64,000 nt of DNA from a virus (IMGVR_UViG_3300021963_004854:107567-171566), one strand, 5' to 3'; counted from the first letter of the stretch, positions 12,077 to 53,864 are shown. Notes: a model not told the origin generated them from the sequence alone. Numbers and translations are program-made.

Positions 12077-13044
12077 TGCTAGTAGCCCTAGCTATTACAG
12101 GTGTAGCTGGCTACTTTTCGATTTTGGGATTGATGGCTATCTTTCCTGCATCACCTATTGCAGTAGCTGCCATGGGTATTGTATTAGAACTTGCTAAGTT
12201 GGTTACAGCCAGCTGGGTGTATCGTAATTGGAAAACAGCGAATCGATTGCTGAAAACCTATTTTACGATTGCAGTCATCGTTCTTTCGTTCATCACAAGT
12301 ATGGGCGTATTTGGTTATCTAAGTAAAGCCCACATCGAACACACCACTGTCGGTGGTTCGTCACAACTACAAATTGCCCAGCTAGAAAGCCAAAAGGCTA
12401 TAGCGGAAAGGAGACTAAAGAATGCACAAACATCTTTGGATACTCTGGACAGACTCACTACTGGCGAAAATATCCTTGATGCTAATTTCATTAGAAATCG
12501 ACAGAAGCGAGAACGTGCGGCCCTTAATAAGGAAATTGAGGGTGCGACTACAGACATTCAGACTATTGAGACTAATCTCATACCGCTCAAAACAGAAACC
12601 CTCAAACTCGAAGCGGAAGTAGGCCCTATCAAATATGTAGCGGAACTGTTCTACGGTAGTGGTGATAACGCCACTATCGATAAGGCTGTTCGCATGATGA
12701 TTATCATTCTTATCTTTGTTTTCGACCCATTGGCAATTCTTTTGATTATTGCGGCGAATATGACCTTTTTAGGGTTGACAAAGAGAGAAGAATCAGATAC
12801 AATAGACAATGTTCCCGTTGAAGTTTATGTGCCAGCACCGGCTCCAACAGAGACACTAAAAGAAGTTGTAAGAAAAGCAAAGAACAATCGTAAGAAGAAA
12901 CCGAAAGCACCCACACCAGAAGTTCCTGACTTCTTTAAGTTTGAGAAGCACGGGTCTACTCATGATGTTCCGATGCCCGACCCCCCTCGCAAAAATGCAA
13001 GGGGTCAAATCATAGTTGATGAAAAAAATATTAGGAGAATGTGA
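12055..13044 (+). CDS. Multi-pass membrane protein with coiled coil
   Basis: Three N-terminal TM helices, SMGVFGYLSKAH, EVGPIKYVAE, FVFDPLA. Confidence 0.75.
   Translation: MFFAALLMLVALAITGVAGYFSILGLMAIFPASPIAVAAMGIVLELAKLVTASWVYRNWKTANRLLKTYFTIAVIVLSFITSMGVFGYLSKAHIEHTTVGGSSQLQIAQLESQKAIAERRLKNAQTSLDTLDRLTTGENILDANFIRNRQKRERAALNKEIEGATTDIQTIETNLIPLKTETLKLEAEVGPIKYVAELFYGSGDNATIDKAVRMMIIILIFVFDPLAILLIIAANMTFLGLTKREESDTIDNVPVEVYVPAPAPTETLKEVVRKAKNNRKKKPKAPTPEVPDFFKFEKHGSTHDVPMPDPPRKNARGQIIVDEKNIRRM
12775..12803 (+). promoter_or_regulatory. Intragenic GANTC-type promoter
   Basis: TTGACA 12775-12780, GAATC 12790-12794, TACAAT 12798-12803; same geometry as the early family. Confidence 0.55.
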
Positions 13045-13325
13045 TGACTTTATTTTATGAGAAAAACGGCCCAGACCAAGACTGGCGCTCTAGTGTGCGT
13101 GATACTCTGACTAAGGGAGTGGCGCATGTTGAATTTGAAAAAAATGATGGTCAAATTCGGCATATGAAATGCACTCTTGATCCAACTGTTGTTCCGCCAT
13201 ACCAAGAACTTGGTAAGACTACGAAGATTCCTAGCGATGATGTTCAAGCCGTCTGGGATATTGAAAAGGCTGCATGGCGGTCATTTAGATTCGATAGAGT
13301 TCGAAATATTCGTTTTGAGGGTTGA
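13041..13325 (+). CDS. WYL_2/SH3-like beta-barrel protein
   Basis: VEFEK.DG..R.M.CTL, VWD.EK.AWRSFR.D. Confidence 0.8.
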   Translation: MMTLFYEKNGPDQDWRSSVRDTLTKGVAHVEFEKNDGQIRHMKCTLDPTVVPPYQELGKTTKIPSDDVQAVWDIEKAAWRSFRFDRVRNIRFEG

Positions 13326-13350
13326 CAAACGACTCGATATATCGTATAGT
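13322..13350 (+). promoter_or_regulatory. Sigma70-type promoter with CGACTCG (GANTC) in the spacer
   Basis: TTGACA 13322-13327, CGACTCG 13330-13336, TATAGT 13345-13350. Confidence 0.7.
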
Positions 13351-13374
13351 AAGATATATTGAGAAGGAGATATT

Positions 13375-14493
13375 ATGTATAAACTTAAGGTACCTATCGC
13401 CGAGTCGAAGTATGTTGGTGTTGAGCCTATCTGGGCTGATGGTTATGAACCAGAAGATTACCAGCGTGAATATGGCAACGCCCTCAATTGGTACAACTAC
13501 ATTGTAGACGCCAAAGACTGCCGTGCATTTCTAGTTGACTATTATAAGAGCGACAAAGAAAAGCTAAAGGCTCTGAGCCAGGTACCTGACAAGTTTATTC
13601 CTCGAACGTATGCAAATACCGCTCGTATTGCAATGCGTGGCTTTCCTGTAACTGAGGTTCATATGAATCGCATTTGGGAAAAGGTCGAGGAAGTTGTGAA
13701 TAAGCGTATCAAGTCCGACGAAGATGAACCTGACACCACTACACCTGTAGTCAAGGTCGTCAAGCCACCCAAACTAGCTTCCACATATATTCTTGCCCTC
13801 GTCAATGACGAAATCGAAAATCTTATCGAAGGTGAAGACCCGAAAACTATGGGTCAAATTCTAATGCCGTATAAGATGAGTGATAAGCAATATTCAGACT
13901 GCGCTGAAAAGTTGCAGCCTTTGCTGGCAGAATATGCAGAAGTTCTAGAACTTCGTCGGACTGACCGCAAGACACTTACCGAAGAACAAATTGAATTCAT
14001 GGACTCGTTCAAGTTCTCTGGTATCACAATCATTAAGAAGATTGTCCAGCTTATCGAAGGTTATGTCAACGACCTCAAGAAGTCTTACATTAGCAAGCAG
14101 GTTGCTAAGGTTCGTAAGAAGAAGCCTAAAGATAAGACAAAGCTGGTAAGAGGTATCAAATTCCTTGCCGAAGATGAAAAGTTCGGTAAGAGTATCGACC
14201 CAGTTAACCTTCTAAATTGTAGTGAAGTATGGACCTTCGATACTAAGACGCGGAAACTGTCTAAGTATTACAGTCCTGTTGGTGGTGGCATCACAGTGAA
14301 GGGTGCGGCACTCGTTGGCTATGAAGAAACAATGTCTAGTTGTAAATTGCTTCGAAAGCCCGAAGAACAGATTCCTGCATTTTCTGCTACTGCTAAAAAA
14401 GACTTGACAAAATGGTATTCTTCTGTTAAAAGTAAGAATGCGAATGTGCGACCGCGGCTTACCGCGACGACTCTGATTTTGAAAGTATTTTAA
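13375..14493 (+). CDS. Hypothetical protein of T4-like phages
   Basis: 372 aa, strong RBS; ALNWYNY and K.LRKPEE motifs. Confidence 0.75.
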   Translation: MYKLKVPIAESKYVGVEPIWADGYEPEDYQREYGNALNWYNYIVDAKDCRAFLVDYYKSDKEKLKALSQVPDKFIPRTYANTARIAMRGFPVTEVHMNRIWEKVEEVVNKRIKSDEDEPDTTTPVVKVVKPPKLASTYILALVNDEIENLIEGEDPKTMGQILMPYKMSDKQYSDCAEKLQPLLAEYAEVLELRRTDRKTLTEEQIEFMDSFKFSGITIIKKIVQLIEGYVNDLKKSYISKQVAKVRKKKPKDKTKLVRGIKFLAEDEKFGKSIDPVNLLNCSEVWTFDTKTRKLSKYYSPVGGGITVKGAALVGYEETMSSCKLLRKPEEQIPAFSATAKKDLTKWYSSVKSKNANVRPRLTATTLILKVF

Positions 14494-14816
14494 TGGCAGA
14501 TAATGACAATGTAACATATCTTAGAATGCAACCTAAGAACCCTGATAACGAATCATACTCTTATTTTCTAGAGGGTGCAGCGCAACATGCTGCATATCAG
14601 GATGCGGAAGCTATGGCTGCCGCGTGTATAAATGGCATCTTAGCGGTCATCAATAAGAAGGTCGGTGGGATTAAAAACGATAATATTCATCGGGACGCGG
14701 CCGTGGTTGCTGTTCTCATTCAAGGTATGTTTATGCGTCAAGTTGACGTTCATTGCCCAGAAATAAACCTTCTAGATGATATCAGTGAAATTTTGAGTGG
14801 GAAGGAACACAGCTAA
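14493..14816 (+). CDS. Hypothetical protein
   Basis: Translationally coupled (TAATG) on both sides. Confidence 0.7.
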   Translation: MADNDNVTYLRMQPKNPDNESYSYFLEGAAQHAAYQDAEAMAAACINGILAVINKKVGGIKNDNIHRDAAVVAVLIQGMFMRQVDVHCPEINLLDDISEILSGKEHS

Positions 14817-15697
14817 TGATAGTGGTAGACTTTAACCAAGTTGCAATTAGTAACATGATGGCTGAACTTGGTGGTCGTCGCGATGTGGAGGTCAATCTTC
14901 CTCTCATTCGTCATATGATTATCAATTCAATTCGTTCATATAAGCGTAAGTTCGGTGCAGAATTTGGCGATATCATCATTGCATGTGATAATCGAAACTA
15001 CTGGCGCCGCCAGTTCTTCCCTAACTACAAGGCTAATCGTAAGAAAAGCCGCGCAGACAGTGGCTTTGACTGGAATTCAATCTTCGAAGCCCTGCATCAG
15101 GTCCGTGCCGAGTTGCAAGAGCATTTTCCATATCCTGTGATTGATGTTGATGGCGCAGAAGCAGATGATGTAATCGCCGCGCTTGCAGAATATAGTCAGA
15201 CTTCGAATGTTGATGGCCTTATTCCTAGTGCAGAGCCTTTCCTCGTTCTCTCTGGCGACCATGACTTCAATCAGTTGCAGAAGTGGTCCAACGTAAAGCA
15301 GTATGCACCAGTGCAGAAGAAGTTTGTTAAGCTGACTGATAAGCCAGAAGTTGTTCTGATGGAACACATTATCACCGGCGATAAGGGCGATGGTGTTCCT
15401 AACATCCTGTCAGATGATGATACGTTTGTCACTGGTTCACGCCAGCGTCCCATGAAGAAGGATAAGGTTGCAGAGTGGAAGCACCAGAAGCCAGAAGACT
15501 TCATCACCAGTGATGAAATGTGGCGTAACTTCCAACGCAATCGTGAACTGGTTGACTTGTCGCGCATTCCCCAAGATATCAAGGATGCAGTTATTGATAG
15601 TTACGAGAAGCAAAAGGGTGGTGACCGCAGTGGTCTCCTGAATTACTTCATTGCGAATCGTATGAAGCAGATGATTGAGTTGATCGATGAATTTTAA
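14816..15697 (+). CDS. rnh: T4-type RNase H (5'-3' exonuclease)
   Basis: IVVDFNQ, YWRR..FP.YKANR, EADD, SGDHDF.QL, GDKGDGVPN. Confidence 0.95.
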   Translation: MIVVDFNQVAISNMMAELGGRRDVEVNLPLIRHMIINSIRSYKRKFGAEFGDIIIACDNRNYWRRQFFPNYKANRKKSRADSGFDWNSIFEALHQVRAELQEHFPYPVIDVDGAEADDVIAALAEYSQTSNVDGLIPSAEPFLVLSGDHDFNQLQKWSNVKQYAPVQKKFVKLTDKPEVVLMEHIITGDKGDGVPNILSDDDTFVTGSRQRPMKKDKVAEWKHQKPEDFITSDEMWRNFQRNRELVDLSRIPQDIKDAVIDSYEKQKGGDRSGLLNYFIANRMKQMIELIDEF

Positions 15698-17692: not shown

Positions 17693-17780
17693 GGAAGCGT
17701 GGGTGAGTGGTTGAAACCTACAGTCTTGAAAACTGTCGTACCGCAAGGTACCGTGGGTTCGAATCCCACCGCTTCCTCCA
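17693..17780 (+). tRNA. tRNA-Ser(TGA)
   Basis: Cloverleaf, long variable arm, CCA. Confidence 0.95.
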
Positions 17781-17784
17781 GTTT

Positions 17785-17860
17785 GGGGATGTAGTCCAAT
17801 GGCAGAGACAGAGGACTTAAAATCCTTCCAGTGTGGGTTCGAGTCCCACCATCCCTACCA
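17785..17860 (+). tRNA. tRNA-Leu(TAA), short variable loop
   Basis: GAGGA-CTTAAAA-TCCTT, T-loop TTCGAGT, CCA. Confidence 0.9.
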
Positions 17861-17861
17861 A

Positions 17862-17937
17862 TGCCCCTTGGTGTAATTGGCAACACGTCGGATTTTGATT
17901 CCGAAAAGTCCAGGTTCGAGCCCTGGAGGGGCATCCA
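17862..17937 (+). tRNA. tRNA-Gln(TTG)
   Basis: TCGGA-TTTTGAT-TCCGA, CCA. Confidence 0.95.
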
Positions 17938-17956
17938 TTCTTAGAAAGGTTATATA

Positions 17957-18193
17957 ATGAGTGATGTTGTAGCAGTAGACCAACTTCGTCTGTTTATTGA
18001 ACGTATTGAAAACATCGAAGTGGAAATTGATGCGAAGAAGACTGACCGCAAGGAAGTCTATTCAGAATTGAAGGGTGAAGGCTTTGATGCCAAGGCAGTT
18101 CGTGCTATTGTGCGCCTCCGTAAGAAGGAAGCACATATCCGTCAAGAAGAAGATATGATTCTTGATACATATCGAAATGCAATTGGCGTTTAA
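17957..18193 (+). CDS. gapR: GapR/DUF2312 nucleoid-associated protein
   Basis: DQLRLFIERIE..E.E......KEVY.E.KG.GFD.KA.R.IV.LRK....E...L.Y..A.G. Confidence 0.9.
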   Translation: MSDVVAVDQLRLFIERIENIEVEIDAKKTDRKEVYSELKGEGFDAKAVRAIVRLRKKEAHIRQEEDMILDTYRNAIGV

Positions 18194-18784
18194 TTAAAAA
18201 GTTCCGGGGTCTATCAACCCAACTTCTTTAAATGCCCATGCTCTTTCGTTGCATTGCCAACAAGAGCCACAACGTTCTCCTGTAGTTTCAGTGCAACTAT
18301 GAGAGAGTTTAGATATATCTTCTAAAATTCCCGCCTGATGTGCTAACTTGACTGTTTCGCTTTTATCTATTTTTGCAAATGGAAAATGCCAGCCAGTATA
18401 GTTCGCATCAGGCGGAATTCTTACTGGCTCTGTTCCAGGTAGTGTTACGGGTGGATTTTGAGTGTCCGCACTTATCAATGTCTTAAATCCAAAACGAAAT
18501 AGTTGTTCGGCTGGATATGAGATATGTCTACTATGATGTAATCCCACCGGAATTGAAACGATTAGATGGTCTATCTCAATTTCATGTAGTTTTTCTGCCC
18601 ATTCGCAAATCGATTTACCAAAATCTACTGCGGCAGAGCCTCTATCTATCGTAATGCAACGTAGAGAGTTTAAGCCGCTTTTCTTTGCTTCAATGCAATA
18701 TAAATGAAGCATGAGGGCGCTATCGAAACCGCCGCTAATAAACAGTCCGAAATTACCCTCGGGAATAGTAATTGAATACGTCAT
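18194..18784 (-). CDS. QueC-like PP-loop ATP pyrophosphatase
   Basis: SGGFDS; HSC.E....CG.CWQC.ER Zn site; start moved to MTYSITIP. Confidence 0.75.
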   Translation of the reverse strand: MTYSITIPEGNFGLFISGGFDSALMLHLYCIEAKKSGLNSLRCITIDRGSAAVDFGKSICEWAEKLHEIEIDHLIVSIPVGLHHSRHISYPAEQLFRFGFKTLISADTQNPPVTLPGTEPVRIPPDANYTGWHFPFAKIDKSETVKLAHQAGILEDISKLSHSCTETTGERCGSCWQCNERAWAFKEVGLIDPGTF

Positions 18785-18862
18785 AGATGAACCTTTAATA
18801 TAATCACGATTATATTTAGTTTCGAATTTATGCTTGACATTTGGTAGTGAATTAGTTATATA

Positions 18863-19906
18863 ATGATGATGAAGAAAAAATATCAAATTACTCACATGGG
18901 CAAGACCCTCAACACCGACCACTGGTATGACTTACCAGAAGATAAATGTCTGGAGTTGAAGGCTGCGTATTATCAAAAGCCAGATTTTGATTTGGTTGAG
19001 AAAAATCTGCAGGCCGTGCGCAACGGCGGCACTGTTATCAGTACCATTACTAGCTATTATGTGAAAGACCTAATGGCTAAAGTCAAGTTGCAATCTCCTC
19101 GTTGGTCTATCGAACAAGTGTTTGAGTCCAACGATTTGATACGATACTTTTGGAGCCGAGTGCTTTCAAGCGATAAAGTATACCCAAAGACGGATTCAGA
19201 TATCAAGAACTTTGAGGCTGCCCTGCGACTTAGTGGCGGTGGTGTTGCGATGAAGCCGTCTAACTATCCTATTAAGTCAGTAGACGAGGTGTTATCCAAA
19301 TATAACATCAATGGTAAATACTATGATTTCTCGTGTGGTTGGGGCGTAAGATTGCTCTCGGCAATGAGAAATCGGGTTGAGTATTACGGCACTGACCCGA
19401 ATAATCTGTTGGTAGACCGACTTAGGCAGATGGCCACAGATTACAATACTGTAAATGGTACGAATGCATCGTATGACATTAGATGCCATGGTTCTGAAAC
19501 ATTCGTGCCAGAATGGGAAAACACTATCGGAGTAGCCTTTAGTAGCCCCCCGTATTTCAGTCTTGAAGACTATGGTGTTGGCAATCAGTCATATAAGCCT
19601 GGGACTTCCTATCAAGAGTGGCTAGATAACTATCTGCGACCCACGATAGAGAACATCAAGAAATATTTGATTGAAGACGGCAAGATGCTCGTTAACATCA
19701 AAGATTTCTTAGATTACAAGCTATGCGCTGATACTAGAGCCATTGCAGAAAGTCTAGGGTTTCATTATGTTGAAACACTCACGTTGAAGAACATAACGAG
19801 GCCAAGTGCCAAAGCAGATTTGAATACGGATGAAGGCATTATGGTGTTCTCGAAAAAGCCTGTGCAGCCTAACCCATTCAGCGAAACGCTATTCATTTTT
19901 GAATAA
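18863..19906 (+). CDS. DNA amino-methyltransferase (m4C/m6A)
   Basis: YDFSCGWG.RL (motif I) then FSSPPYF..E.Y (motif IV); TTGACA..TATAAT promoter upstream. Confidence 0.85.
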   Translation: MMMKKKYQITHMGKTLNTDHWYDLPEDKCLELKAAYYQKPDFDLVEKNLQAVRNGGTVISTITSYYVKDLMAKVKLQSPRWSIEQVFESNDLIRYFWSRVLSSDKVYPKTDSDIKNFEAALRLSGGGVAMKPSNYPIKSVDEVLSKYNINGKYYDFSCGWGVRLLSAMRNRVEYYGTDPNNLLVDRLRQMATDYNTVNGTNASYDIRCHGSETFVPEWENTIGVAFSSPPYFSLEDYGVGNQSYKPGTSYQEWLDNYLRPTIENIKKYLIEDGKMLVNIKDFLDYKLCADTRAIAESLGFHYVETLTLKNITRPSAKADLNTDEGIMVFSKKPVQPNPFSETLFIFE

Positions 19907-19918
19907 CAAAATTAGTGG

Positions 19919-19978
19919 TTGACATTTACCTGCGAATCAGCTATAAAGAAAGAGTAGTTGATGACGAGGTGATTCGAA
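19919..19978 (+). promoter_or_regulatory. Early promoter cassette (GANTC family)
   Basis: TTGACA 19919, CGAATC 19933, TATAAA 19942, TGATTCG 19970. Confidence 0.85.
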
Positions 19979-20365
19979 ATGCTTACTCTTGCCGATATTA
20001 ATGCTGCCACCAATTCTAAAGATGGCAATATCTATTCCGACCTCTACAAGGATGTTTACGGCAGCCGTCCTCGGTATGCCCAGTTCGCATCCATCGAAGA
20101 GTTCGATGCGGATTTCGAACGCCTTGTGGCTCGTCTGGCCGAACAGATTGACGAAGATAAGATTCGTCAGGATGCAAATCTTGAAGCATTCAAGGTGCGC
20201 GTGGCAGAAACCATGCTTCTTTGTAACTGCGACAAGGTTCGCGCCGTAGAAATCATCGCCGATGCTGAAGGCGAACTTGAGAACCTTGAGTTCTACAGTT
20301 ACGAACGCCTTGAGTGGTACTTCGATATTAAATTCGGAGATATCAAGCAGTGGATGGCTGAATAA
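19979..20365 (+). CDS. Early hypothetical protein
   Basis: YSDLYKDVYG.RPR motif; follows a promoter cassette. Confidence 0.8.
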   Translation: MLTLADINAATNSKDGNIYSDLYKDVYGSRPRYAQFASIEEFDADFERLVARLAEQIDEDKIRQDANLEAFKVRVAETMLLCNCDKVRAVEIIADAEGELENLEFYSYERLEWYFDIKFGDIKQWMAE

Positions 20366-20371
20366 GTTTTT

Positions 20372-20446
20372 GCGCCTGTAGCTCAAAGGTAGAGCCAGCC
20401 CCTCATAAGGGCCAGGTTGCGGGTTCGAGTCCTGCCGGGCGCACCA
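20372..20446 (+). tRNA. tRNA-CAT (probably Ile2; Met possible)
   Basis: Loop CTCATAA; C4:G69 and C5:G68 as in TilS substrates; CCA. Confidence 0.85.
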
Positions 20447-20456
20447 AATATAATAC

Positions 20457-20515
20457 TTGACATTCTCTGTAAATCTGCTATTATGAGAATGTAGTAAGTG
20501 AGAAAGTGATTCGTT
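20457..20515 (+). promoter_or_regulatory. Early promoter cassette
   Basis: TTGACA 20457, AAATC variant, TATTAT 20479, TGATTCG 20507. Confidence 0.8.
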
Positions 20516-20716
20516 ATGGAAGTTTTTGCATTGTTAGGTGAATGGGATTACGAAGGTTCTGTGCTCCTTGGCGTGTATGCGTCTCAAGATGAAGCACGGA
20601 ATGCCCATGGTGTGTATACTCGTGATGGCGATCGGCTCATCGACCGCTACTATGTTGAGCGTCGGACGCTCGGTGCACCTGTAGATTCCGATGAGTATCG
20701 GTACTACATCGGTTAA
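20516..20716 (+). CDS. Early hypothetical protein
   Basis: Follows a promoter cassette; DYEG..LLGVY.S...A. Confidence 0.75.
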   Translation: MEVFALLGEWDYEGSVLLGVYASQDEARNAHGVYTRDGDRLIDRYYVERRTLGAPVDSDEYRYYIG

Positions 20717-20726
20717 AGTTTAACAT

Positions 20727-20802
20727 GGACGATTAGCTCAGTCGGTAGAGCGCGGGACTCTTAATCCTTAGGTCGTAGGTTCGAATCCTACATCGTCTAC
20801 CA
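20727..20802 (+). tRNA. tRNA-Lys(CTT)
   Basis: Cloverleaf, CCA. Confidence 0.93.
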
Positions 20803-20808
20803 TTTCAC

Positions 20809-20884
20809 GGACACTTAGCTCAGTAGGTAGAGCAACGGGCTTTTAACCTGTAGGTCCTGGGTTCGAACCCCAGAGTGTCCACCA
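20809..20884 (+). tRNA. tRNA-Lys(TTT)
   Basis: Cloverleaf, CCA. Confidence 0.95.
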
Positions 20885-20889
20885 TATTT

Positions 20890-20965
20890 GCGAGTGTAGC
20901 TCAGTTGGTAGAGCAAACGACCGATAATCGTTAGGTCACAGGTTCGAACCCTGTCACTCGCACCA
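20890..20965 (+). tRNA. tRNA-Ile(GAT), C33
   Basis: AACGA-CCGATAA-TCGTT, CCA. Confidence 0.9.
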
Positions 20966-20966
20966 T

Positions 20967-21038
20967 ACCAGCAGAACAAGTGTTCGACCGACTCTCATAA
21001 GGTTGGTTCGGGTGGAGCGTTACCACCTGCTGGTACCA
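20967..21038 (+). tRNA. Non-canonical tRNA-like RNA with CAT anticodon
   Basis: ACCAGCA/TGCTGGT acceptor + A + CCA; mini D-arm; 7-bp anticodon stem; T-loop AGCGTTA. Confidence 0.7.
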
Positions 21039-21039
21039 T

Positions 21040-21117
21040 GTCACGATGGCAGAGTGGTCCAATGCAACGGATTGCAAATCCGTAAAGCCGCCGGTTCGAA
21101 TCCGGCTCGTGACTCCA
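21040..21117 (+). tRNA. tRNA-Cys(GCA)
   Basis: Cloverleaf, U73, CCA. Confidence 0.93.
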
Positions 21118-21121
21118 CAAT

Positions 21122-21196
21122 GCGGGTGTAGCTCAGTGGTAGAGCATCTCGTTGCCAACGAGACGGTCGGCGGTTCGAATCCGCTCCCCCGCTCCA
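21122..21196 (+). tRNA. tRNA-Gly(GCC)
   Basis: GCGGG start, U73, CCA. Confidence 0.93.
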
Positions 21197-21199
21197 AAT

Positions 21200-21274
21200 G
21201 GCCCGGTCGTCTAGTGGCTAGGACACCGCCCTTTCAAGGCGGAGAAGCGGGATCGAAACCCGTTCGGGCTACCA
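21200..21274 (+). tRNA. tRNA-Glu(TTC)
   Basis: CCGCC-CTTTCAA-GGCGG, T-loop ATCGAAA, CCA. Confidence 0.92.
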
Positions 21275-21290
21275 TTTAGAAAGTGTTGTT

Positions 21291-21467
21291 ATGGTTAAAA
21301 TGATTTTTGCATTTTTGTTTATTTTTGCCCTTGTATTCTTTGGAATTCAAATTGTTCGAGATATGACAAAAAGTGAAAAATTAGGCTTGACAAAGTTGTT
21401 CGCCTATAGTATAGTGTGTTCTGTAGCAGCGATGGCCGTTGCCACAGCAATTGTTTTGATTTTCTAA
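21291..21467 (+). CDS. Small two-TM membrane protein (58 aa, not in ORF track)
   Basis: MVKMIFAFLFIFALVFFGIQ...AVATAIVLIF*; contains a TTGACA-17-TATAGT promoter (21387-21415) for the next gene. Confidence 0.65.
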   Translation: MVKMIFAFLFIFALVFFGIQIVRDMTKSEKLGLTKLFAYSIVCSVAAMAVATAIVLIF

Positions 21468-21481
21468 GGAATAAAGTTATT

Positions 21482-22279
21482 ATGAAAAGTGTTACCAAAG
21501 CTGTTCTTCTCGCTGGCCTTATGGCAACGACTGCCGCTTGTACCCGGATTGAAACAGGTGAAGTCGGCGTTCGTCGCTCGTTTGATAAGACCATCGAAAC
21601 TACCGAACTTCTGCCTGGTTCTGTAAACCAGACTATCTTCGGTGATGTTATGACCTTTCCCACAAAGGACGTTCAGGTCGATGTTACTGATTTGACGCCT
21701 CTGGCATCTGATAACTCGACTGTTGCTGACTTCGATATGGCAGTCATCTATTCGATTAATCCTGGTTCGGTTGCCGAACTCTACATCGAAAAGAACCGCG
21801 GTTTCCACGCTGATACCGAAGAAGGTGATACGCTGTTGATGTATAACTACATCCGCCAGCTTGGCCGTAATGCTGCATATAAGGTTGCTCGTCGTTACGA
21901 GTCCTTGAAGATGGCAGATAACCGCGCAGAGATGGAACAGATGATTCGCCAGGAAATCGTTAACAGTCTTGTTGCCGAAAAGCTAGATGGTGCAATTTCT
22001 GTTTCACAGGTTCTTGTTCGCCAGGTAAAGCCCGCTGCAAACATCGTAGCATCTGCTAACGCCCTTGTTCAAGCCCAGAATGCTGAAAAGCAGAAGCAGG
22101 TAGAAGTTCGCACCGCAAAGCTAGAAGCACAGCGAATTGCCGCTTTGAATGCCAACGCTGGTGCTACCAAGTATATGGAAGCAACCGCAATTGTTACGAT
22201 TGCAGAAGCAGTGAAAGACGGTAAGGTTAATACCATCGTCATTCCTTATGACTTCAAGGGTATTGTGAACGTTAAGTAA
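21482..22279 (+). CDS. SPFH/Band 7 lipoprotein
   Basis: Lipobox TTAAC, RIETGEVGVR, SPFH core, C-term coiled coil; AAGGA RBS. Confidence 0.88.
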   Translation: MKSVTKAVLLAGLMATTAACTRIETGEVGVRRSFDKTIETTELLPGSVNQTIFGDVMTFPTKDVQVDVTDLTPLASDNSTVADFDMAVIYSINPGSVAELYIEKNRGFHADTEEGDTLLMYNYIRQLGRNAAYKVARRYESLKMADNRAEMEQMIRQEIVNSLVAEKLDGAISVSQVLVRQVKPAANIVASANALVQAQNAEKQKQVEVRTAKLEAQRIAALNANAGATKYMEATAIVTIAEAVKDGKVNTIVIPYDFKGIVNVK

Positions 22280-22287
22280 TACTGATT

Positions 22288-22374
22288 GGAAGGTGGGCAG
22301 GACGGTAATGCAACGCACTGCTAATGCGTCTACTAGAAATGGTAGAGTGGGTTCGACTCCCACACCTTCCGCCA
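22288..22374 (+). tRNA. tRNA-Ser(GCT)
   Basis: Long variable arm, G73, CCA. Confidence 0.93.
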
Positions 22375-22393
22375 GTTATAAGTAATAGAATAT

Positions 22394-22471
22394 GGTGGAT
22401 GTAGCTCAGTTGGTTAGAGTGTCGGCTTGTGATGCCGAATGTCGCGGGTTCGAGTCCCGTCATTCACCCCA
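22394..22471 (+). tRNA. tRNA-His(GTG) with encoded G-1 and C73
   Basis: G-GTGGATG...CATTCAC-C-CCA. Confidence 0.95.
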
Positions 22472-22501
22472 TTAAAAAAATAAAAAAATTGAAAATAATA
22501 C

Positions 22502-22562
22502 TTGACATTTTCGACAAAGTAGTATATATATTAGTTCTGTTCTTTGACATTGTTAGAAGTTT
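22502..22562 (+). promoter_or_regulatory. Promoter plus boxA leader of the second RNA operon (repeat copy 2)
   Basis: A-tract, TTGACA 22502, TATATA, then the 28-bp repeat 22535-22562. Confidence 0.75.
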
Positions 22563-22599
22563 CTAAGTTTGTGTCGGGAGGGTTTCGGCCCTCCCACAT

Positions 22600-22760
22600 A
22601 ACTTATTTAATTACTCCTGCTGAGAGTAGCGCATATGGACGCATATGCTAGGCGGGCTGGGTGGGCCATCTACCAGTCCTGAAATAATCTCAGCAATGGC
22701 TTAGGAGAGGAAGCACCTCACTCCGAAATTCGCTCATGAGCAGGAGTAATTAAATGAGTT
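22600..22760 (+). ncRNA. Unknown structured RNA closed by a 22-bp stem
   Basis: AACTTATTTAATTACTCCTGCT pairs with AGCAGGAGTAATTAAATGAGTT; at least three inner hairpins. Confidence 0.6.
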
Positions 22761-22762
22761 TT

Positions 22763-22838
<76 letters not shown>

Positions 22839-22845
22839 TTCTATA

Positions 22846-22924
22846 GCTAAACTACTCGCATGCCGTATGGTGCATGGAGTCTGTCGAGAATGTTTAGCGT
22901 AAGCACCAAGACGTGAGGTGCTTA
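22846..22924 (+). ncRNA. Two-hairpin structured spacer
   Basis: GCTAAAC/GTTTAGC and TAAGCACC/GGTGCTTA. Confidence 0.4.
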
Positions 22925-22927
22925 TAT

Positions 22928-23002
22928 TCCCTAATGGCGCAGCGGTAGCGCAGTTGACTGTTAATCAATTGGTCGGTGGTTCGAATCCATCTTAGGGAGC
23001 CA
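22928..23002 (+). tRNA. tRNA-Asn(GTT)
   Basis: Cloverleaf, G73, CCA. Confidence 0.95.
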
Positions 23003-23008
23003 GTTTGA

Positions 23009-23083
23009 CGCAGGGTGGAGCAGAGGTAGCTCGTCTGGCTCATAACCAGAAGGTCGTCGGTTCAAGTCCGACTCCTGCAACCA
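23009..23083 (+). tRNA. Initiator tRNA-fMet(CAT)
   Basis: C1.A72 mismatch, GAGC/GCTC D-stem, CCA. Confidence 0.9.
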
Positions 23084-23084
23084 G

Positions 23085-23185
23085 TTTAGTATCTTTGATC
23101 TGGGACACGCATACTAAGTCGTGCATATAAACTAAGATGCCCTGCATTCAGGGCTACGTAGGGGAAGATCCTACAAGATACTAAA
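23085..23185 (+). ncRNA. Unknown multi-stem RNA
   Basis: TTTAGTATCTT/AAGATACTAAA closing stem; GCCCTG/CAGGGC and GTAGG/CCTAC hairpins. Confidence 0.5.
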
Positions 23186-23289
23186 ACACCGCCGCCCGTA
23201 TGGTGTATAACAATCCCGGGCCTAGTTTCTCGTAAATATTTTTCAAAAAAGTATTTACAAACACCACACAGTGGTGTATAAGTAGAGAA

Positions 23290-24142
23290 TAAGAAATGGC
23301 GGTATAGCGTCATTAGGGTAACCTTCGGCAACGAAGGCCAAAGCAGGGACTCCTACGTACCTGCGCCGGTAACGGTCCATCTATACAAGCCCAGGTAAGG
23401 GTTGTCTCGGCCATGGCCGTAAGCAATCCCCGTCAGTAGAATGGCGGTAGGCAGTAAGTGAGTGATATAAGTCCGAAAGGATATGAACAGAGCCAGTCGG
23501 TGAGTTCTAATAGACTGTGGTGGTCTAGCTGTATCGAACCAAACTCGCGAATGCTGAAAAACTAATGGGTAATCGCTGAGTCTGATCTAGCAAGAAAAGG
23601 CAAAGCGGTAGCACAATAGTTGAACCGATGAGGGGAGACTAGAAGTGCGGTTGATTAGTCCGCAAGACGAAAGACATGAGGAGTGTTGTATTTTGTATCT
23701 AACAAGATACGAAGCAACTGGAGCAGCACTTCTTGGTAGGTTCGCAAATTGCTTAATGGTAAAGCAACTGACTCTTAATCAGTAGATTCTAGGTTCAAAT
23801 CCTAGTTTGTAACAAAAAGCGAAAGTCTGCTCCAGTGCTATGTGAAAGGTGCTTAATACCTAACACGGAAGTGAATTGGGTTCACGGATTCCCGCAAGGA
23901 TGAAGTGATTGATCCGAGTGAAGACGTAGCGGTTTAGCGACTGCGAACAGCTTGCAAGGCTGGCGGAAGAACGAAGGTCGAATAGCATAGCATGATAAGT
24001 GATAAGCCACACTTCAAAAAAGGCAGCACTGAGGAATACTAGATGACCAGCGATGGCTCTAGTGGATAACGAGTTAACACTTCTCGCAAGGAAGTCGGTA
24101 CGGCTCAAAGGTCCTCAACTAAAAGCAGTAATCTCATGCTTT
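23290..24142 (+). ncRNA. GOLLD-like giant structured RNA (about 850 nt; ends approximate)
   Basis: No credible + strand ORF; own promoter TTTACA-17-TATAAG; many GCAA/GAAA/TTCG-capped hairpins; ACTGGAGCAG/CTGCTCCAGT long-range stem; 3' end AAAGCAGTAATCTCATGCTTT resembles GOLLD as I recall it; lies in a tRNA array. Confidence 0.7.
23742..23812 (+). tRNA. tRNA-Lys(CTT)-like domain embedded in the giant RNA (no CCA)
   Basis: GCTT-AATGGTA-AAGC, ACTGA-CTCTTAA-TCAGT, CTAGG-TTCAAAT-CCTAG; weak acceptor stem. Confidence 0.7.
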
Positions 24143-24145
24143 ACA

Positions 24146-24238
24146 AAGACTTATTAGATGAACACATCAAACCCACTGGGCGGCAGGTCGACTTAATGCT
24201 GCGATAGCGGTCCCTGGTGTGTTCTTCTAATAAGTTTT
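24146..24238 (+). ncRNA. Unknown RNA closed by a 24-bp stem
   Basis: AAGACTTATTAGATGAACACATCA pairs with TGGTGTGTTCTTCTAATAAGTTTT (one U-U mismatch). Confidence 0.55.
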
Positions 24239-24314
24239 GGGGAATTAGCTCAGATGGTAGAGCGCCAGCTTTGCAAGCTGGATGTCAACGGTTCGATCCC
24301 GTTATTCTCCACCA
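24239..24314 (+). tRNA. tRNA-Ala(TGC)
   Basis: G3:U70, CCA. Confidence 0.95.
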
Positions 24315-24319
24315 ATATA

Positions 24320-24449
24320 GACCACCTATGCTGAACCTCGTGGGGAACCACATAGAGAAAGTGGTAGTGTATGCTGTTGCAACAGTAATTGCTATCTAGG
24401 AAGATTGCAACGTCCGGAAGTAAGCAATCAAGGCACACTGCGGGTGGTC
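24320..24449 (+). ncRNA. Unknown multi-stem RNA, possible pseudoknot
   Basis: GACCACCT/GGGTGGTC closing stem; GTGG/CCAC, ATTGCT/AGCAAT, GTTGCAA/TTGCAAC. Confidence 0.5.
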
Positions 24450-24458
24450 ACTCTTTTT

Positions 24459-24541
24459 GCGCCTATGGTGGAATTGGTAGACACGCTGGTTTTAGGTACC
24501 AGTGCGAAAGCGTGGGGGTTCGAGTCCCTCTAGGCGTACCA
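24459..24541 (+). tRNA. tRNA-Leu(TAG)
   Basis: Type II cloverleaf, CCA. Confidence 0.95.
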
Positions 24542-24547
24542 TTATAT

Positions 24548-24623
24548 GCTCCTGTAGCTCAGTTGGTAGAGCATCGGTTTGAAGAACCGAGTGTCGGCGG
24601 TTCGAACCCGTCTGGGAGCACCA
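24548..24623 (+). tRNA. tRNA-Phe(GAA)
   Basis: TCGGT-TTGAAGA-ACCGA (G37), CCA. Confidence 0.93.
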
Positions 24624-24628
24624 GCTAT

Positions 24629-24713
24629 GGGTCGGTAAAGCCAGTGGCTCTGGCAGTCGGACTGTAAATCCGATCCGTTTTCGGGGGAGGATCGATACCT
24701 CACTGGCCCACCA
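24629..24713 (+). tRNA. tRNA-Tyr(GTA), atypical D- and T-arms
   Basis: TCGGA-CTGTAAA-TCCGA, V-arm CCG-TTTT-CGG, T-loop ATCGATA, CCA. Confidence 0.8.
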
Positions 24714-24714
24714 A

Positions 24715-24791
24715 GGTCTGGTAGCTCAGTTGGTTAGAGCGTCGGCCTGTCACGCCGAAGGTCGCGGGTTCAAGTCCCGTCCAGATCGCCA
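24715..24791 (+). tRNA. tRNA-Asp(GTC)
   Basis: Cloverleaf, G73, CCA. Confidence 0.95.
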
Positions 24792-24810
24792 TTACAATAA
24801 ATATATTCAT

Positions 24811-24883
24811 GCGACTGTTCTCCTGGGTGAGGACTCAGCCTTCCAAGCTGACGGAGAGGGTTCGAATCCCTTCGGTCGCTCCA
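24811..24883 (+). tRNA. tRNA-Gly(TCC), atypical D-arm
   Basis: TCAGC-CTTCCAA-GCTGA, U73, CCA. Confidence 0.85.
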
Positions 24884-24885
24884 AT

Positions 24886-43576: not shown

Positions 43577-43638
43577 TTGACTTTCCTCACGAATCTGCTA
43601 CATTTAATAAGTAGTCAGTGAGAAGAAAGTGATTCGAA
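43577..43638 (+). promoter_or_regulatory. Early promoter cassette (GANTC family)
   Basis: TTGACT 43577, CGAATC 43590, TACATT 43599, TGATTCG 43630. Confidence 0.8.
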
Positions 43639-43848
43639 ATGATAGTTGCCCAGCCTGCCCTTGACCTCGTTGTGATCCACGAAGACCTGCCTGTTCGGGT
43701 TTGGTACAACAACCCTGCCCCTCAGAAAGCAGTCTGGCTCATCAAGCCCAACGGTTTGATGCGGCTCTACGCCAACGAAGCCGTGATGGCGATGCCAGTG
43801 GCTGATGCTGCCATGGCAGCGAAAGCCTTTGCGCCGGTCGTGAAATGA
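43639..43848 (+). CDS. Early hypothetical protein
   Basis: Follows a cassette. Confidence 0.7.
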   Translation: MIVAQPALDLVVIHEDLPVRVWYNNPAPQKAVWLIKPNGLMRLYANEAVMAMPVADAAMAAKAFAPVVK

Positions 43849-43852
43849 CCGC

Positions 43853-43915
43853 TTGACATTTGATTGCGAATCGAGTATATTATAAAAGTAGTCAGTGAGA
43901 AAGGAATGATTCGTT
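43853..43915 (+). promoter_or_regulatory. Early promoter cassette (GANTC family)
   Basis: TTGACA 43853, CGAATCG 43867, TATATT 43876, TGATTCG 43907. Confidence 0.85.
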
Positions 43916-44272
43916 ATGGCTTATATGTCTCAGAGTGAGAAGGCTCGTCTTGCCCCTAAAGTCAAGGCAATCCTCAAGAAGTATAACATGAAGGGTTCGC
44001 TTGCGGTTCGCAATTACAGCACCCTTGTTCTCAACCTCAAGTCAGGTCCTCTGAACCTCGCCGACAATGACCGTGGTTATAACCAGGTCAATATGTATTG
44101 GTTGGCTGATAGCTACCAAGGTAAGGAACTGGCTTTCCTCCAAGAAATCAAAGCTGCCATGAATGATGGCAATTATGACAACAGCAACGCCCAAATCGAT
44201 TACTTCTCGGTGGGTTGGTACGTTAACGTCAACGCTGGTCAGTGGAACAAGCCATACCAGAAGGTTGCTTAA
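43916..44272 (+). CDS. Early hypothetical protein
   Basis: MAYMSQ..K, DNS.AQ.DYF.VGWY, G.W.KPY. Confidence 0.75.
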   Translation: MAYMSQSEKARLAPKVKAILKKYNMKGSLAVRNYSTLVLNLKSGPLNLADNDRGYNQVNMYWLADSYQGKELAFLQEIKAAMNDGNYDNSNAQIDYFSVGWYVNVNAGQWNKPYQKVA

Positions 44273-44334: not shown

Positions 44335-45804
44335 ATGATTTCCAGTGAACTTTTTGAAATTGATGCCGCTTGTGTCCGTCGAGAAGAAATGACGGTCGAG
44401 CGCCTATATTACATGATGACCACCGCGCTGTCTAGGCTCAATCCTAATCCCGTTGGTCAACGGGCACCAACTAATGATGGCTTCCAGAATAGCAAGAACG
44501 AAGGGATCATCGAATCGATCCTCTCTGGATATGGTGTCGATACCATCTATCTCCGCGATATCACTGTGTATGAGCCAGAACATCCCATCCGCAAGTTGTA
44601 TAACAACGATGGTTATTTGACAATCGATGGCGGTCACCGCTGCCGTGCCATTCGTTGGTTCATCGAAAACAAGTTTTATATTACCATCGATGACAACAAG
44701 TTTTTCTTCCGCGATTTGCCACGCGATATTCTTGAGAAGTTTATGCAGGCGACGGTAGCCGTGAAGTATATCGTTTGCACCTCTGGACAGGCTCACAAGT
44801 GGTTCCTGATGATTAACAAGATGACCAAGACCAATGAGATTGAGTCCATCATGGCTGATGATGAGTCAGATGTTACGCGGTTCATCCGCACCATGACCTG
44901 GTATGTCAAGGAATATGGCAACCGCGAACAGATTCATCCGATCTTCCGTGTCTATATTTCCGAGAAGAGTGACTATACCACCGACCTCTGGAACAAAGCC
45001 AATCTTGGCGGTTCGTTCTACTATCACGCATTCATCACCCTTGCCAAGGCAATTGGCAACGGAAATGTGAATGCAGGCGAGACCGCATGGAAGAGGATTA
45101 TTGCAGATGATTATGCTGGAAAGCCTCTAACCAAGAACGCAATCGAAATCTGGAACAAGTTCTTTGATGACCTGTTAAAGTTCCAAAAGATTGTTGGCTA
45201 TAAGAAGGGATTGGACGATGATAGCTTCGGCTTCTTCTCTTGCTTCTGGTTCCACTTGTTAAACAAGTATGGCAAGAACTTCCGTCTAGACATGGACACT
45301 CTTGCCCCTATCCTGGCACGCGCCAAGACTCTCTTGACAATCAAGAATGGCACCCAGCACAATGACTATGACGATACTATCGTCACGGGTGTTGATGGCG
45401 AGAATGAATATTTGAAGACCCTGATGCGGTCATATGTCAAGGCATTCTCATACGGAAGTAAGCAAGACTTTGCTGGTGAGTATATCCTCAATGAAGTCGA
45501 ACGCCAATCGGATGATGACACTGGCATCATTGTGATGGACAATCGCCGCAGTCTGTCTCTCCGCGACAAGGAAGCACTATTTGCAGCGCAGATGGGAAAG
45601 TGCTGGCTCGACTATAACGGGCATCCGTGTAAGAGTTCCGATAAGAAGTTGACGATTGACGATTGCGTCCTCGCCCACGATACGCCATATGCATATGGCG
45701 GTAAGGCAAGCGATGGGGTGATTATGTGTAATTCGTGCCACTCCAAGCAGGGTATGCTTACTCTTGATGAATATGTGGCACACCTCAATTCAGAAACCGC
45801 TTGA
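44335..45804 (+). CDS. DUF262 (ParB/Srx, GmrS-like) + C-terminal HNH-like nuclease
   Basis: QR, IIESIL.G, IDGGHR, F..IN; C-term Q.GKC...H..P...GG......C..C. Confidence 0.7.
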   Translation: MISSELFEIDAACVRREEMTVERLYYMMTTALSRLNPNPVGQRAPTNDGFQNSKNEGIIESILSGYGVDTIYLRDITVYEPEHPIRKLYNNDGYLTIDGGHRCRAIRWFIENKFYITIDDNKFFFRDLPRDILEKFMQATVAVKYIVCTSGQAHKWFLMINKMTKTNEIESIMADDESDVTRFIRTMTWYVKEYGNREQIHPIFRVYISEKSDYTTDLWNKANLGGSFYYHAFITLAKAIGNGNVNAGETAWKRIIADDYAGKPLTKNAIEIWNKFFDDLLKFQKIVGYKKGLDDDSFGFFSCFWFHLLNKYGKNFRLDMDTLAPILARAKTLLTIKNGTQHNDYDDTIVTGVDGENEYLKTLMRSYVKAFSYGSKQDFAGEYILNEVERQSDDDTGIIVMDNRRSLSLRDKEALFAAQMGKCWLDYNGHPCKSSDKKLTIDDCVLAHDTPYAYGGKASDGVIMCNSCHSKQGMLTLDEYVAHLNSETA

Positions 45805-45829
45805 CATTTACCAGCGAATCATCTATAAG
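45801..45829 (+). promoter_or_regulatory. Early promoter (GANTC family)
   Basis: TTGACA 45801, CGAATCA 45815, TATAAG 45824. Confidence 0.8.
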
Positions 45830-46133: not shown

Positions 46134-46168
46134 GAATCACTTGACATTCCTAGCGAATCTGCTATTAT
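46134..46168 (+). promoter_or_regulatory. Early promoter (GANTC family)
   Basis: GAATC 46134, TTGACA 46141, CGAATC 46154, TATTAT 46163. Confidence 0.85.
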
Positions 46169-49143: not shown

Positions 49144-49212
49144 CGAATCGCTTGACATTTCCGACGAATCTGCTATTGTTAGTAAGTAGTCAGTGAGAGA
49201 AAGTGATTCGAA
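49144..49212 (+). promoter_or_regulatory. Early promoter cassette with three GANTC sites
   Basis: CGAATCG 49144, TTGACA 49152, CGAATC 49165, TATTGT 49174, TGATTCG 49204. Confidence 0.88.
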
Positions 49213-49314
49213 ATGTTTGCTCTTGTTTTTGCCCTTGTCTTGATTCCAGTCTTCCAGATCATTCGGGAAGACCTTGTTGCTGGTTATGAACTCGTTCCTG
49301 CTGAGGTGATGTAA
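49213..49314 (+). CDS. 33-aa hydrophobic early peptide (not in ORF track)
   Basis: MFALVFALVLIPVFQIIREDL...; ATG at the cassette start position. Confidence 0.55.
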   Translation: MFALVFALVLIPVFQIIREDLVAGYELVPAEVM

Positions 49315-49315: not shown

Positions 49316-49453
49316 ATGATTAAGGTTCAGTATCGCTACTATAACTATTCCCTAAAGACCAAGTTTTTTGAGGAATACGAAGATGCCCGCAAGTTTTGGA
49401 ACTACATGCGTGTCCAATCCGGCATCCGCTATGCTGAGTTGATTACCGCTTGA
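49316..49453 (+). CDS. 45-aa early protein (not in ORF track)
   Basis: MIKVQYRYYNY...ELITA*; GAGGTG RBS; stop lies in the next -35 box. Confidence 0.6.
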   Translation: MIKVQYRYYNYSLKTKFFEEYEDARKFWNYMRVQSGIRYAELITA

Positions 49454-49512
49454 CATTTGGTCGCGAATCGACTATAGTTATTAAGTAGTCAGTGAGAAGA
49501 AAGTGATTCGTT
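49450..49512 (+). promoter_or_regulatory. Early promoter cassette (GANTC family)
   Basis: TTGACA 49450, CGAATCG 49464, TATAGT 49473, TGATTCG 49504. Confidence 0.88.
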
Positions 49513-49749
49513 ATGATTGATATCCTCGAGAACGTTGAGAAGTTTGACCGTGTTGTTGCCGAGCATGTCCTGTGGATGTTTGATGACGCCGAAGAGATTG
49601 GAAGCAGCGATATCAACGCCTGCGTCAACAACATTCTGATGGAATATTACCCCAAAGCGAGTGACGCTCCTGTTCACCAGTTTTCGATTGCCAAGATTGC
49701 AGTCCGTCAAGCCCTGATGAACATGGAAGATATTCGCCAGCTCTACTAA
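49513..49749 (+). CDS. Early hypothetical protein
   Basis: Follows a cassette. Confidence 0.7.
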   Translation: MIDILENVEKFDRVVAEHVLWMFDDAEEIGSSDINACVNNILMEYYPKASDAPVHQFSIAKIAVRQALMNMEDIRQLY

Positions 49750-49751: not shown

Positions 49752-49820
49752 ACCGCTTGACATTTTGTGTGGTTATGCTATTATAAAATGTAAGTTGAAA
49801 AGAGAAAGTGATTCGTTATG
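49752..49820 (+). repeat. Early promoter cassette, near-identical to 33669-33737
   Basis: TTGACA 49757, TGATTCG 49809. Confidence 0.85.
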
Positions 49821-53256: not shown

Positions 53257-53460
53257 CCTTCACTGGATAAGTTAGTAAATCCCACTAACTATTAGTATAA
53301 TTTACGCATTCCACTGTCCATGAACTAGACCACGGATAATAAGACTATTTGAGAACCCATAGGCTGAGATAATTGCTCTTCCAATTTTCTCTTGACAAAG
53401 GACCTTCGGTAGTTTATATTAGTCATATAGCGAATCACTTCTAACCTATGAGGTACCACG

Positions 53461-53625
53461 ATGCGAGACTATACCATTACTAGAGTAAAGCCCGGCACCT
53501 ACCTGCTGGACCTATACGTTAACGGTTCCTGGGTTACCTCTAAGCAGGGTAACAAGTATGAGGTGGAGCAGTATGCCACTCGGTTCATCAATAAGCGTAT
53601 GCCACAGCGTTTCATTATGACCTAG
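53461..53625 (+). CDS. 54-aa early protein with its own promoter and terminator (not in ORF track)
   Basis: TTGACA 53392, TATATT 53415, CGAATCA 53431, GAGG RBS; MRDYTITRVKPGTYLLDLYVNG... Confidence 0.65.
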   Translation: MRDYTITRVKPGTYLLDLYVNGSWVTSKQGNKYEVEQYATRFINKRMPQRFIMT

Positions 53626-53657
53626 TTTTCCTTTCCTTTCGCTAGGTCATCATACTG

Positions 53658-53691
53658 GGTCCTCGGGTCAAACGACTCGGGGACCTTTTTT
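53658..53691 (+). terminator. Rho-independent terminator
   Basis: GGTCCTCGGGTC-AAAC-GACTCGGGGACC followed by a T run. Confidence 0.8.
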
Positions 53692-53804
53692 GATTCGAAT
53701 CACCGTAAAAGTCTTGACGAATCACTTGGCCTGTGGTATAAAGGAGTGTAGCTCCTAAAGAATAACTCCATTGAATCAATCACTTGGCTAGATGAAATTA
53801 GTGG

Positions 53805-53864
53805 TTGACATTCCCTACGAATCTGCTATTGTAAGAGAGTAGACAGAAGAGAGAACGAATCATC
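53805..53864 (+). promoter_or_regulatory. Early promoter cassette with inverted downstream GANTC
   Basis: TTGACA 53805, CGAATC 53818, TATTGT 53827, CGAATCA 53856. Confidence 0.85.

Follow-up and report, generated by a model that had tools for sequence, protein, structure and literature searches.

Most early promoters of a T4-like phage carry a short word, GAATC, at a fixed distance from their -10 hexamers, and the question raised by this locus is what reads it. The window, IMGVR_UViG_3300021963_004854:107567-171566, covers 64,000 nucleotides of an IMG/VR virus record 171,566 bp long, with 42% G+C. Judged by its proteins, the virus is a T4-like myovirus. Methylophilales phage Melnitz and the Pelagibacter phages HTVC008M and Mosig have major capsid proteins with 66% identity to its own, and its DNA polymerase shows about 50% identity to those of cyanophages. 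Besides nucleotide-metabolism genes, 24 tRNA genes and a GOLLD RNA, the window contains dozens of small early genes, encoded on the + strand. The word is found within the -35/-10 spacer (spacer box) and again close to the start codon (downstream box). As set out below, these boxes are tentatively read as sites for GcrA, a sigma70 cofactor of Alphaproteobacteria.

Eleven promoters have GAATC exactly 3 bp before the -10 hexamer, with -35 boxes at 12775, 19919, 33281, 40767, 43577, 43853, 45801, 46141, 49152, 49450 and 53805, all as described in a sequence-only reading of the window. That reading gave the spacer word as nearly always CGAATC, which holds for ten of the eleven, the promoter at 12775 having AGAATC. 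Its nine copies of TGATTCG two bases before an ATG were also recovered: TGATTCG-NN-ATG occurs at exactly these nine sites (Table 1), as compared to 0.25 expected. The pattern for 17-bp spacers, TTGAC-N10-GANTC-N3-TA, has five matches in the window, as compared to 0.01 expected from shuffles. At 40818 and 53856, in agreement with the same reading, the downstream box is inverted and reads CGAATCA instead of TGATTCG; a third inverted copy is located at 53431, downstream of another promoter. In some promoters a third GAATC adjoins the -35 box (46134 and 49145). Five cassette-family promoters in the window have no spacer box (18834, 20457, 33674, 42214 and 49757), and further family members are located outside the window, at genome positions 81475, 82117 (as CGATTCG), 82517, 84808, 11740 and 13268.

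Over the whole genome GANTC is only mildly depleted, with 519 sites versus about 654 expected under a Markov model. The intergenic density of GANTC is 2.3 times the genic density. Among 256 gapped pentamers, GANTC ranks third in intergenic enrichment, after one -10-like and one Shine-Dalgarno-like word. The box pattern is far beyond chance.

Cassettes were pooled from this genome and 14 fragments of close relatives (75-90% nucleotide identity), giving 77 distinct cassettes. GANTC is present at -20 to -16, exactly 3 bp before the -10 hexamer, in 51 of them. Conservation of the box columns is 69-87%, in comparison with 34-48% at -26 to -22, and as the bases just upstream vary freely, the box itself must be under selection. 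The distance from the box to the -10 hexamer is constant in both 16- and 17-bp spacers. Orthologous promoters differ in their flanks, and even in cassette subtype, and still have the box. For the promoter at 53392, CGAATCA is kept in three orthologous promoters of relatives, with the spacer and flanks diverged. The spacer box and the downstream box are independent of each other (25/26/10/16). An RNA helix between the two boxes in read-through transcripts was ruled out, due to this independent occurrence and because inverted copies cannot pair. These comparisons indicate that the boxes are selected DNA-level promoter elements and not merely copied.

Copying is the point on which one alternative rests, in which the words are functionless and hitch-hike in a recently amplified, recombining cassette similar to the promoter-early stem-loop (PeSL) cassettes of T4-type phages (Arbiol 2010 PMC2839356; Comeau 2014 PMC4122927). 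The cassettes are repeats bordering small early genes, and gene modules have been swapped at their borders among relatives. In four relatives, for example, the module at 18875-19870 is found between positions corresponding to 44285 and 45800 (L010-L014 comparison), where this phage (G000) has instead an open reading frame (ORF) of 489 residues (44335-45804). The box, however, is conserved while adjacent spacer bases are randomised, and this column-wise pattern already disfavours hitch-hiking. Moreover, the box is found in promoters with unrelated spacers and untranslated regions (UTRs), at 12775, 53392 and genome positions 11740 and 13268, and in the different cassettes of distant phage groups. 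Hitch-hiking is therefore regarded as extremely improbable. The cassettes do have a repeated early promoter bordering variable small genes, and they are sites of exchange. Folding of the 45 nt that precede the promoter in 15 cassettes gave no consistent stem-loop or terminator signal (mean z of -0.23 versus shuffles), and hairpins are found there in isolated cases only. Strict PeSL membership was rejected for want of a consistent upstream stem-loop, and the cassettes are PeSL-like in behaviour.

The consensus of GcrA is 'TGATTCG or, more broadly, YGAKTCK', and the sites of its regulon are 'narrowly centered around -20' and 'from +2 to +30', the -10 being nearly devoid of them (Haakonsen 2015 PMC4647560). 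Wu et al. place GcrA sites at -20+/-1, -30+/-2 and +5 to +30, and report a structure on the promoter PcsM with Gm6AATC in the spacer. The PcsM scaffold is TTGACA-CCCGGGCGAATCCCTGC-TATAAT, with GCGAATCC on the non-template strand, and the promoter PmipZ has TGAGTCG downstream, on the non-template strand (Wu et al., PMC5887438 / PMC9976885).

The phage promoters have the GANTC core in the spacers of 51/77 cassettes and in the downstream boxes, and the downstream box is exactly TGATTCG, in nine forward and three inverted copies. On the template strand the spacer boxes read CGATTCG or TGATTCG (7/7 to consensus) or AGATTCG (6/7), with GATTCG in almost all. The spacer box has the position given above if the -10 hexamer is numbered -12 to -7. 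The downstream boxes are located about 22-25 nt after the -10 hexamer (10 nt in one case), inside +2 to +30 under any plausible start. A conserved GTAG starts at the seventh base after the hexamer, and a start at that G would place the centre of the spacer box at -18; depending on the start, the centre would fall at about -18 to -20. The boxes occur in either orientation and match the GcrA box in word and strand, and approximately in zone. The earlier statement that TGATTCG fits the GcrA motif is borne out by the published data in sequence, strand orientation and approximate position.

We give slightly less than an even chance to the reading that the boxes are GcrA-type sites in the DNA close to the promoter, with GcrA as their proposed reader. 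The RNA polymerase holoenzyme of an alphaproteobacterial host would carry GcrA, whose small DNA-binding domain would recognise GATTCG-type GANTC at about -20 in the spacer or just past the start site. Binding of GcrA would speed polymerase binding and open-complex formation. By building GcrA words into its repeated early-promoter cassette, the phage would have its first genes fire strongly from GcrA-loaded polymerase.

An alphaproteobacterial host is likely, because an alpha-type transfer-messenger RNA (tmRNA) and GapR are hallmarks of such hosts. A two-piece (permuted) tmRNA with the tag ANDNVAFAGYALAA is encoded outside the window, at genome positions 14720-15093 (L008 310-651). Its best Rfam family is alpha_tmRNA, with 71.8 bits versus a gathering score of 50, and similar tmRNA genes are found in the distant T4-like contigs G007, G008, G011, G026, G028 and G031. 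The window encodes a GapR-like protein (Table 1). GapR homologues are present in 149 cultured phage records, whose hosts are almost all Rhodobacter, Rhizobium, Ruegeria, Agrobacterium, Caulobacter, Brevundimonas and other Alphaproteobacteria, with a few cyanophage exceptions. The bacterial GapR matches found by a limited genome scan (n=3) are all from Sphingomonadales, with 52-62% identity, and GcrA is encoded in two of the three Sphingomonadales genomes with the nearest GapR. The host possibly belongs to this order.

The distribution of the boxes in other phages bears on whether the reader belongs to the host or to the phage. IMG/VR was scanned with TTGACA-N8/9-CGAATC-N3-TAnnnT, the control being the same pattern with the hexamer reversed, and only the matches listed were compared. 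Among them are this lineage, a cousin group with the same UTR and three low-GC T4-like groups. Loci with at least two hits make up 13/80 of the listed loci for CGAATC and 0/80 for the control. The three distant groups, with DNA polymerases 38-45% identical to that of this phage, have further promoters, not forced by the search pattern, with (A/G/C)GAATC 3 bp before the -10 hexamer. In a histogram of GANTC offsets, a sharp peak is observed 3 bp before the -10 hexamer in this lineage, the cousin groups and the three distant groups. The distant groups also have alpha-type tmRNA (94-123 bits), and two of them have GapR. Extra GANTC around the motif promoters of other phages amounts to 0.49 per promoter (0.59 with the G000 lineage) versus 0.43 in controls, which is not meaningful. 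The cassette DNA has no match in cultured phages.

Contigs with a DNA ligase 52-67% identical to that of this phage (L015-L088, e.g. L031, L039 and L049; larger phages, one of 335 kb) have GANTC at the box position in 0/311 promoters. Their early cassette is a different one and highly conserved, TTGACAATAAATCC-N-TTTGG-N-TATAAT...TATAGTC...GGAG. Separately, GANTC was observed 1 nt after the -10 hexamer in 17/311 of their promoters.

This lineage-specific occurrence inside the phage clade is what would be expected if the boxes were operators of a phage-encoded DNA-binding protein, be it an activator or a repressor for early shut-off, with GATTCG recognised in both orientations. Independent of orientation, the boxes are placed within promoter cores, where a repressor would block polymerase, and the palindrome TGATTCGAATCA at 53691-53702 resembles a dimer site. 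Most boxes, however, are single half-sites. In a Pfam census of 103 window ORFs, no sequence-specific regulator is found among the 25 of 71 matched families listed, most small early proteins being without a family, and what this phage has in common with the distant motif-bearing groups is RNase H, PhoH, gp32, a nuclease and unknown proteins. The same box with the same 3-bp spacing is present in the groups with 38-45% polymerase identity, whereas cyanophages (about 50%) do not have it. A phage factor would thus need horizontal spread to reach the more distant polymerase groups. The design does not follow phage phylogeny and goes with alphaproteobacterial markers, which therefore favours a reader at the level of the host. 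A phage-encoded reader is considered unlikely.

Several observations weigh against GcrA as that host reader. About a third of the family promoters have no spacer box. Between box and -10 hexamer there are 3 bp, in comparison with 5 bp in PcsM, the only solved upstream GcrA box, which puts the centre of the phage box at about -18 unless the start site is 8-9 nt past the hexamer. The extra GAATC adjoining the -35 box (centre about -40) is outside the reported GcrA zones. The design is absent in 16 cultured phages, 13 of them from alphaproteobacterial hosts, including T4-like phages of Caulobacter, Ochrobactrum, Rhizobium, Sinorhizobium and Pelagibacter. The strict pattern has no match in 15 cultured phages and one match in Melnitz, and the early promoters of Cr30 belong to the TTTAC type, without GANTC at a fixed place. 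The looser TTGAC-N9/10-GANTC has 27 matches versus 13 for the control in 14 cultured phages (12 of alphaproteobacterial hosts), with only Ochrobactrum phage OC mildly enriched (8 versus 1). In 151 Sphingomonadales genomes the pattern is not above control, but this is a crude comparison that carries little information because GANTC is depleted there and the -10 boxes differ. Finally, no CcrM-type, Dam-type or C5 methyltransferase (PF01555, PF02086, PF00145) is encoded in the phage genome, while GcrA prefers methylated sites and the CcrM of the host is present only briefly in the cell cycle.

The fixed spacing would also suit an intrinsic element read by the host polymerase (sigma region 3, NCR or the beta' zipper) or a feature of DNA shape that gives strong promoters in this group of hosts, with no cofactor and no methylation. 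The 3-bp distance to the -10 hexamer is kept whatever the spacer length, typical of elements that, like the extended -10, are read together with the -10 hexamer. In many promoters the box adjoins TGC or some other context resembling the extended -10, and the box is 2 bp nearer the hexamer than the solved GcrA site. We know of no sigma70 spacer element that reads GAATC, however. An intrinsic element would leave unexplained the same word downstream of the start, the inverted copies and the copies upstream of the -35 box, and a third of otherwise identical family promoters do without the box. We consider such an element distinctly unlikely.

The sequence-only reading went beyond GcrA binding to a methylation switch. 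In a form wider than that reading gave it, early transcription of this and many other aquatic T4-like phages would be epigenetically gated: GcrA would read only the adenine-methylated GANTC of the injected genome, CcrM of the previous host cell would set this state, and new, unmethylated genomes would be silenced. Methylated virion DNA is doubtful because host CcrM is restricted in the cell cycle, and gating of this kind is very improbable; the on/off switch as such is unsupported. The search of the genome for gcrA and ccrM homologs, which that reading had suggested, found neither in the phage. Self-methylation by the phage was likewise rejected, as the three methylase families above, GcrA and TET are all absent from its genome. 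A distant motif-bearing group (L121/L149) has a putative beta-class N6/N4 DNA methylase of 246 residues (L121 7201-7941, also G011 59446-60078), its gene in L121 lying between two GAATC-box promoters. The best NCBIfam match of the L121 protein is CcrM, but with 90 bits versus a cut-off of 830.

The inverted downstream sites had been taken as an argument for a DNA-level signal. The argument stands for the three inverted sites, but it does not hold for the nine forward ones, where an RNA role through a 7-bp duplex with 16S rRNA may be played. The forward pre-ATG TGATTCG would then be an extended Shine-Dalgarno (SD) sequence pairing with 16S GGAUCAC, or part of a RegA operator, or both, an interpretation that is doubtful on balance and not exclusive of the others. 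GUGAUUC would form 7 bp with the 16S 3' tail, with predicted energies of -10.0 to -10.8 kcal/mol versus -8.0 kcal/mol for canonical AAGGAG sites, although the 16S tail in this calculation is an assumed one and may not be the host's. The distance from TGATTCG to the ATG is fixed at 2 nt while that to the -10 hexamer varies over 22-25 nt. A RegA homologue is encoded outside the window (genome 89777-90136; PF01818, 158 bits), and the consensus of T4 RegA from in vitro selection (SELEX), aaAAUUGUUAUGUAA, resembles GAUU(C)GUUAUG. On the other hand, the same 7-mer is inverted at 40818, 53856 and 53431, with weak SD pairing (-3.5 and -4.3, two computed). The conserved core is TGATTCG with a variable preceding base, and G or T stands at its seventh position, in agreement with the GcrA consensus. 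An RNA reading of the pre-ATG box does not extend to the spacer box. A role in translation may belong to the nine forward boxes, alone or additionally; the inverted and non-transcribed copies cannot.

The individual sites are collected in Table 1. The cassette with the extra GAATC and the AAGGAG site drives the gene upstream of DNA ligase. In the promoter-like TTGACGAATCA, GAATC overlaps the 3' end of the -35 box, and with the sites that come after it, six GANTC are present from 53674 to 53823. This region may be the start of a short transcript that contains a hairpin.

Table 1. Box-bearing promoters and associated features of the window, numbered from its first base
Feature	Coordinates	Strand	Details
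Promoter-like, AGAATC 3 bp before -10 TACAAT	12775-12803	+	Inside ORF of 350 residues; spacer unrelated to cassette family
GapR-like DNA-binding protein, 78 residues	17957-18193	+	Used as host evidence, not proposed as box reader
Cassette, 17-bp -35/-10 spacer	19919-19981	+	Spacer box CGAATCA; TGATTCG 19970-19976, 2 nt before ATG
Family cassette without spacer box (AAATC there)	20457-20518	+	TGATTCG 20507-20513 before ATG
Cassette, 16-bp -35/-10 spacer	33281-33344	+	CGAATCT then TGC; TGATTCG 33333-33339 before ATG
Family cassette without spacer box (GGTTG there)	33674-33737	+	TGATTCG 33726-33732
Cassette, inverted downstream box	40767-40826	+	Spacer box CGAATCT; CGAATCA 40818-40824 overlapping ATG
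Cassette	43577-43641	+	Spacer box CGAATCT; TGATTCG 43630-43636
Cassette	43853-43918	+	Spacer box CGAATCG (other strand CGATTCG, fits YGAKTCK); TGATTCG 43907-43913
Cassette without downstream box	45801-45829	+	Spacer box CGAATCA; UTR end GAGATTGTTATG
Cassette, extra GAATC adjoining -35 (46134-46138)	46134-46168	+	Spacer box CGAATCT; canonical AAGGAG SD
Three-box cassette	49145-49215	+	CGAATCG adjoining -35; spacer box CGAATCT; TGATTCG 49204-49210
Cassette	49450-49515	+	Spacer box CGAATCG; TGATTCG 49504-49510
Family cassette without spacer box (GGTTA there)	49757-49820	+	TGATTCG 49809-49815
Non-family promoter	53392-53437	+	CGAATCA 53431-53437, about 10 nt after -10
Strong terminator hairpin, then palindrome TGATTCGAATCA (53691-53702), then promoter-like TTGACGAATCA	53657-53730	+	
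Cassette, inverted downstream box	53805-53867	+	Spacer box CGAATCT; CGAATCA 53856-53862

Other features of the window were observed alongside the promoters. The tRNA array (17693-25861, + strand) has its 24 genes, including two for tRNA-Met and three for tRNA-Lys, interleaved with small ORFs and promoter cassettes. The GOLLD RNA (Rfam RF02032; 187 bits versus a gathering score of 150) is located within this array, at 23678-24140 on the + strand. Curli-secretion components are encoded by the phage as well, namely a CsgG homologue (59793-60617, + strand, 180 bits) and, at another place in the window, a protein of the CsgF family. Two neighbouring genes for TET-associated glycosyltransferases (TAGT) are found at 55971-57760 on the + strand, and the window also encodes three 2OG-Fe(II) oxygenases, ThyX and dCMP deaminase. 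Neither a TET/JBP protein nor a C5 methylase was detected in this phage carrying TAGT genes. The TAGT and oxygenase set may be a DNA or virion modification system, which could alter the boxes as seen by a DNA reader.

In a full-text literature search, no paper was found to describe GcrA boxes in the promoters of phages. Should the reader be GcrA, lytic phages of Alphaproteobacteria would tap a host cell-cycle and epigenetic cofactor to launch infection. The success of infection would then be tied to the replication phase and methylation state of the host, and the boxes would be a sequence signature by which uncultured phages could be predicted to have alphaproteobacterial hosts. The cassettes are also compact natural test templates for the effects of box position and orientation on GcrA action.

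Three known systems can be compared with these promoters. Like PeSLs, they are repeated early-promoter cassettes between small genes of plastic regions, with gene modules exchanged at the cassettes among close relatives. Unlike in PeSLs, the conserved part of the phage cassette includes a discrete spacer word and the 5' UTR. The second comparison is with T4 RegA operators and extended SD sequences, with which the phage shares a conserved word directly before the AUG of many early genes, an encoded RegA and a word strongly complementary to the 16S 3' tail. In contrast to those systems, the phage word is also present in inverted form and in non-transcribed promoter DNA, which an RNA signal leaves unexplained.

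The third comparison is with PcsM and PmipZ of Caulobacter crescentus, which are GcrA-activated, CcrM-methylated sigma70 promoters that the phage promoters resemble in sequence. The phage boxes differ in lying in a repeated early-promoter cassette, in the 3 bp, not 5 bp as in PcsM, between spacer box and -10 hexamer, and in the extra box beside the -35 box, outside the reported zones; the phage promoters are also close to the TTGACA/TATAAT consensus. As in these two promoters, a GANTC core with preferred flanks (TGATTCG / GATTCG) is found in one zone of the -35/-10 spacer near -20 and in another downstream of the start site, in the form of single, monomer-type sites. The strand is also the same, with CGAATC on the non-template strand as in PcsM and TGAKTCG on the non-template strand as in PmipZ.

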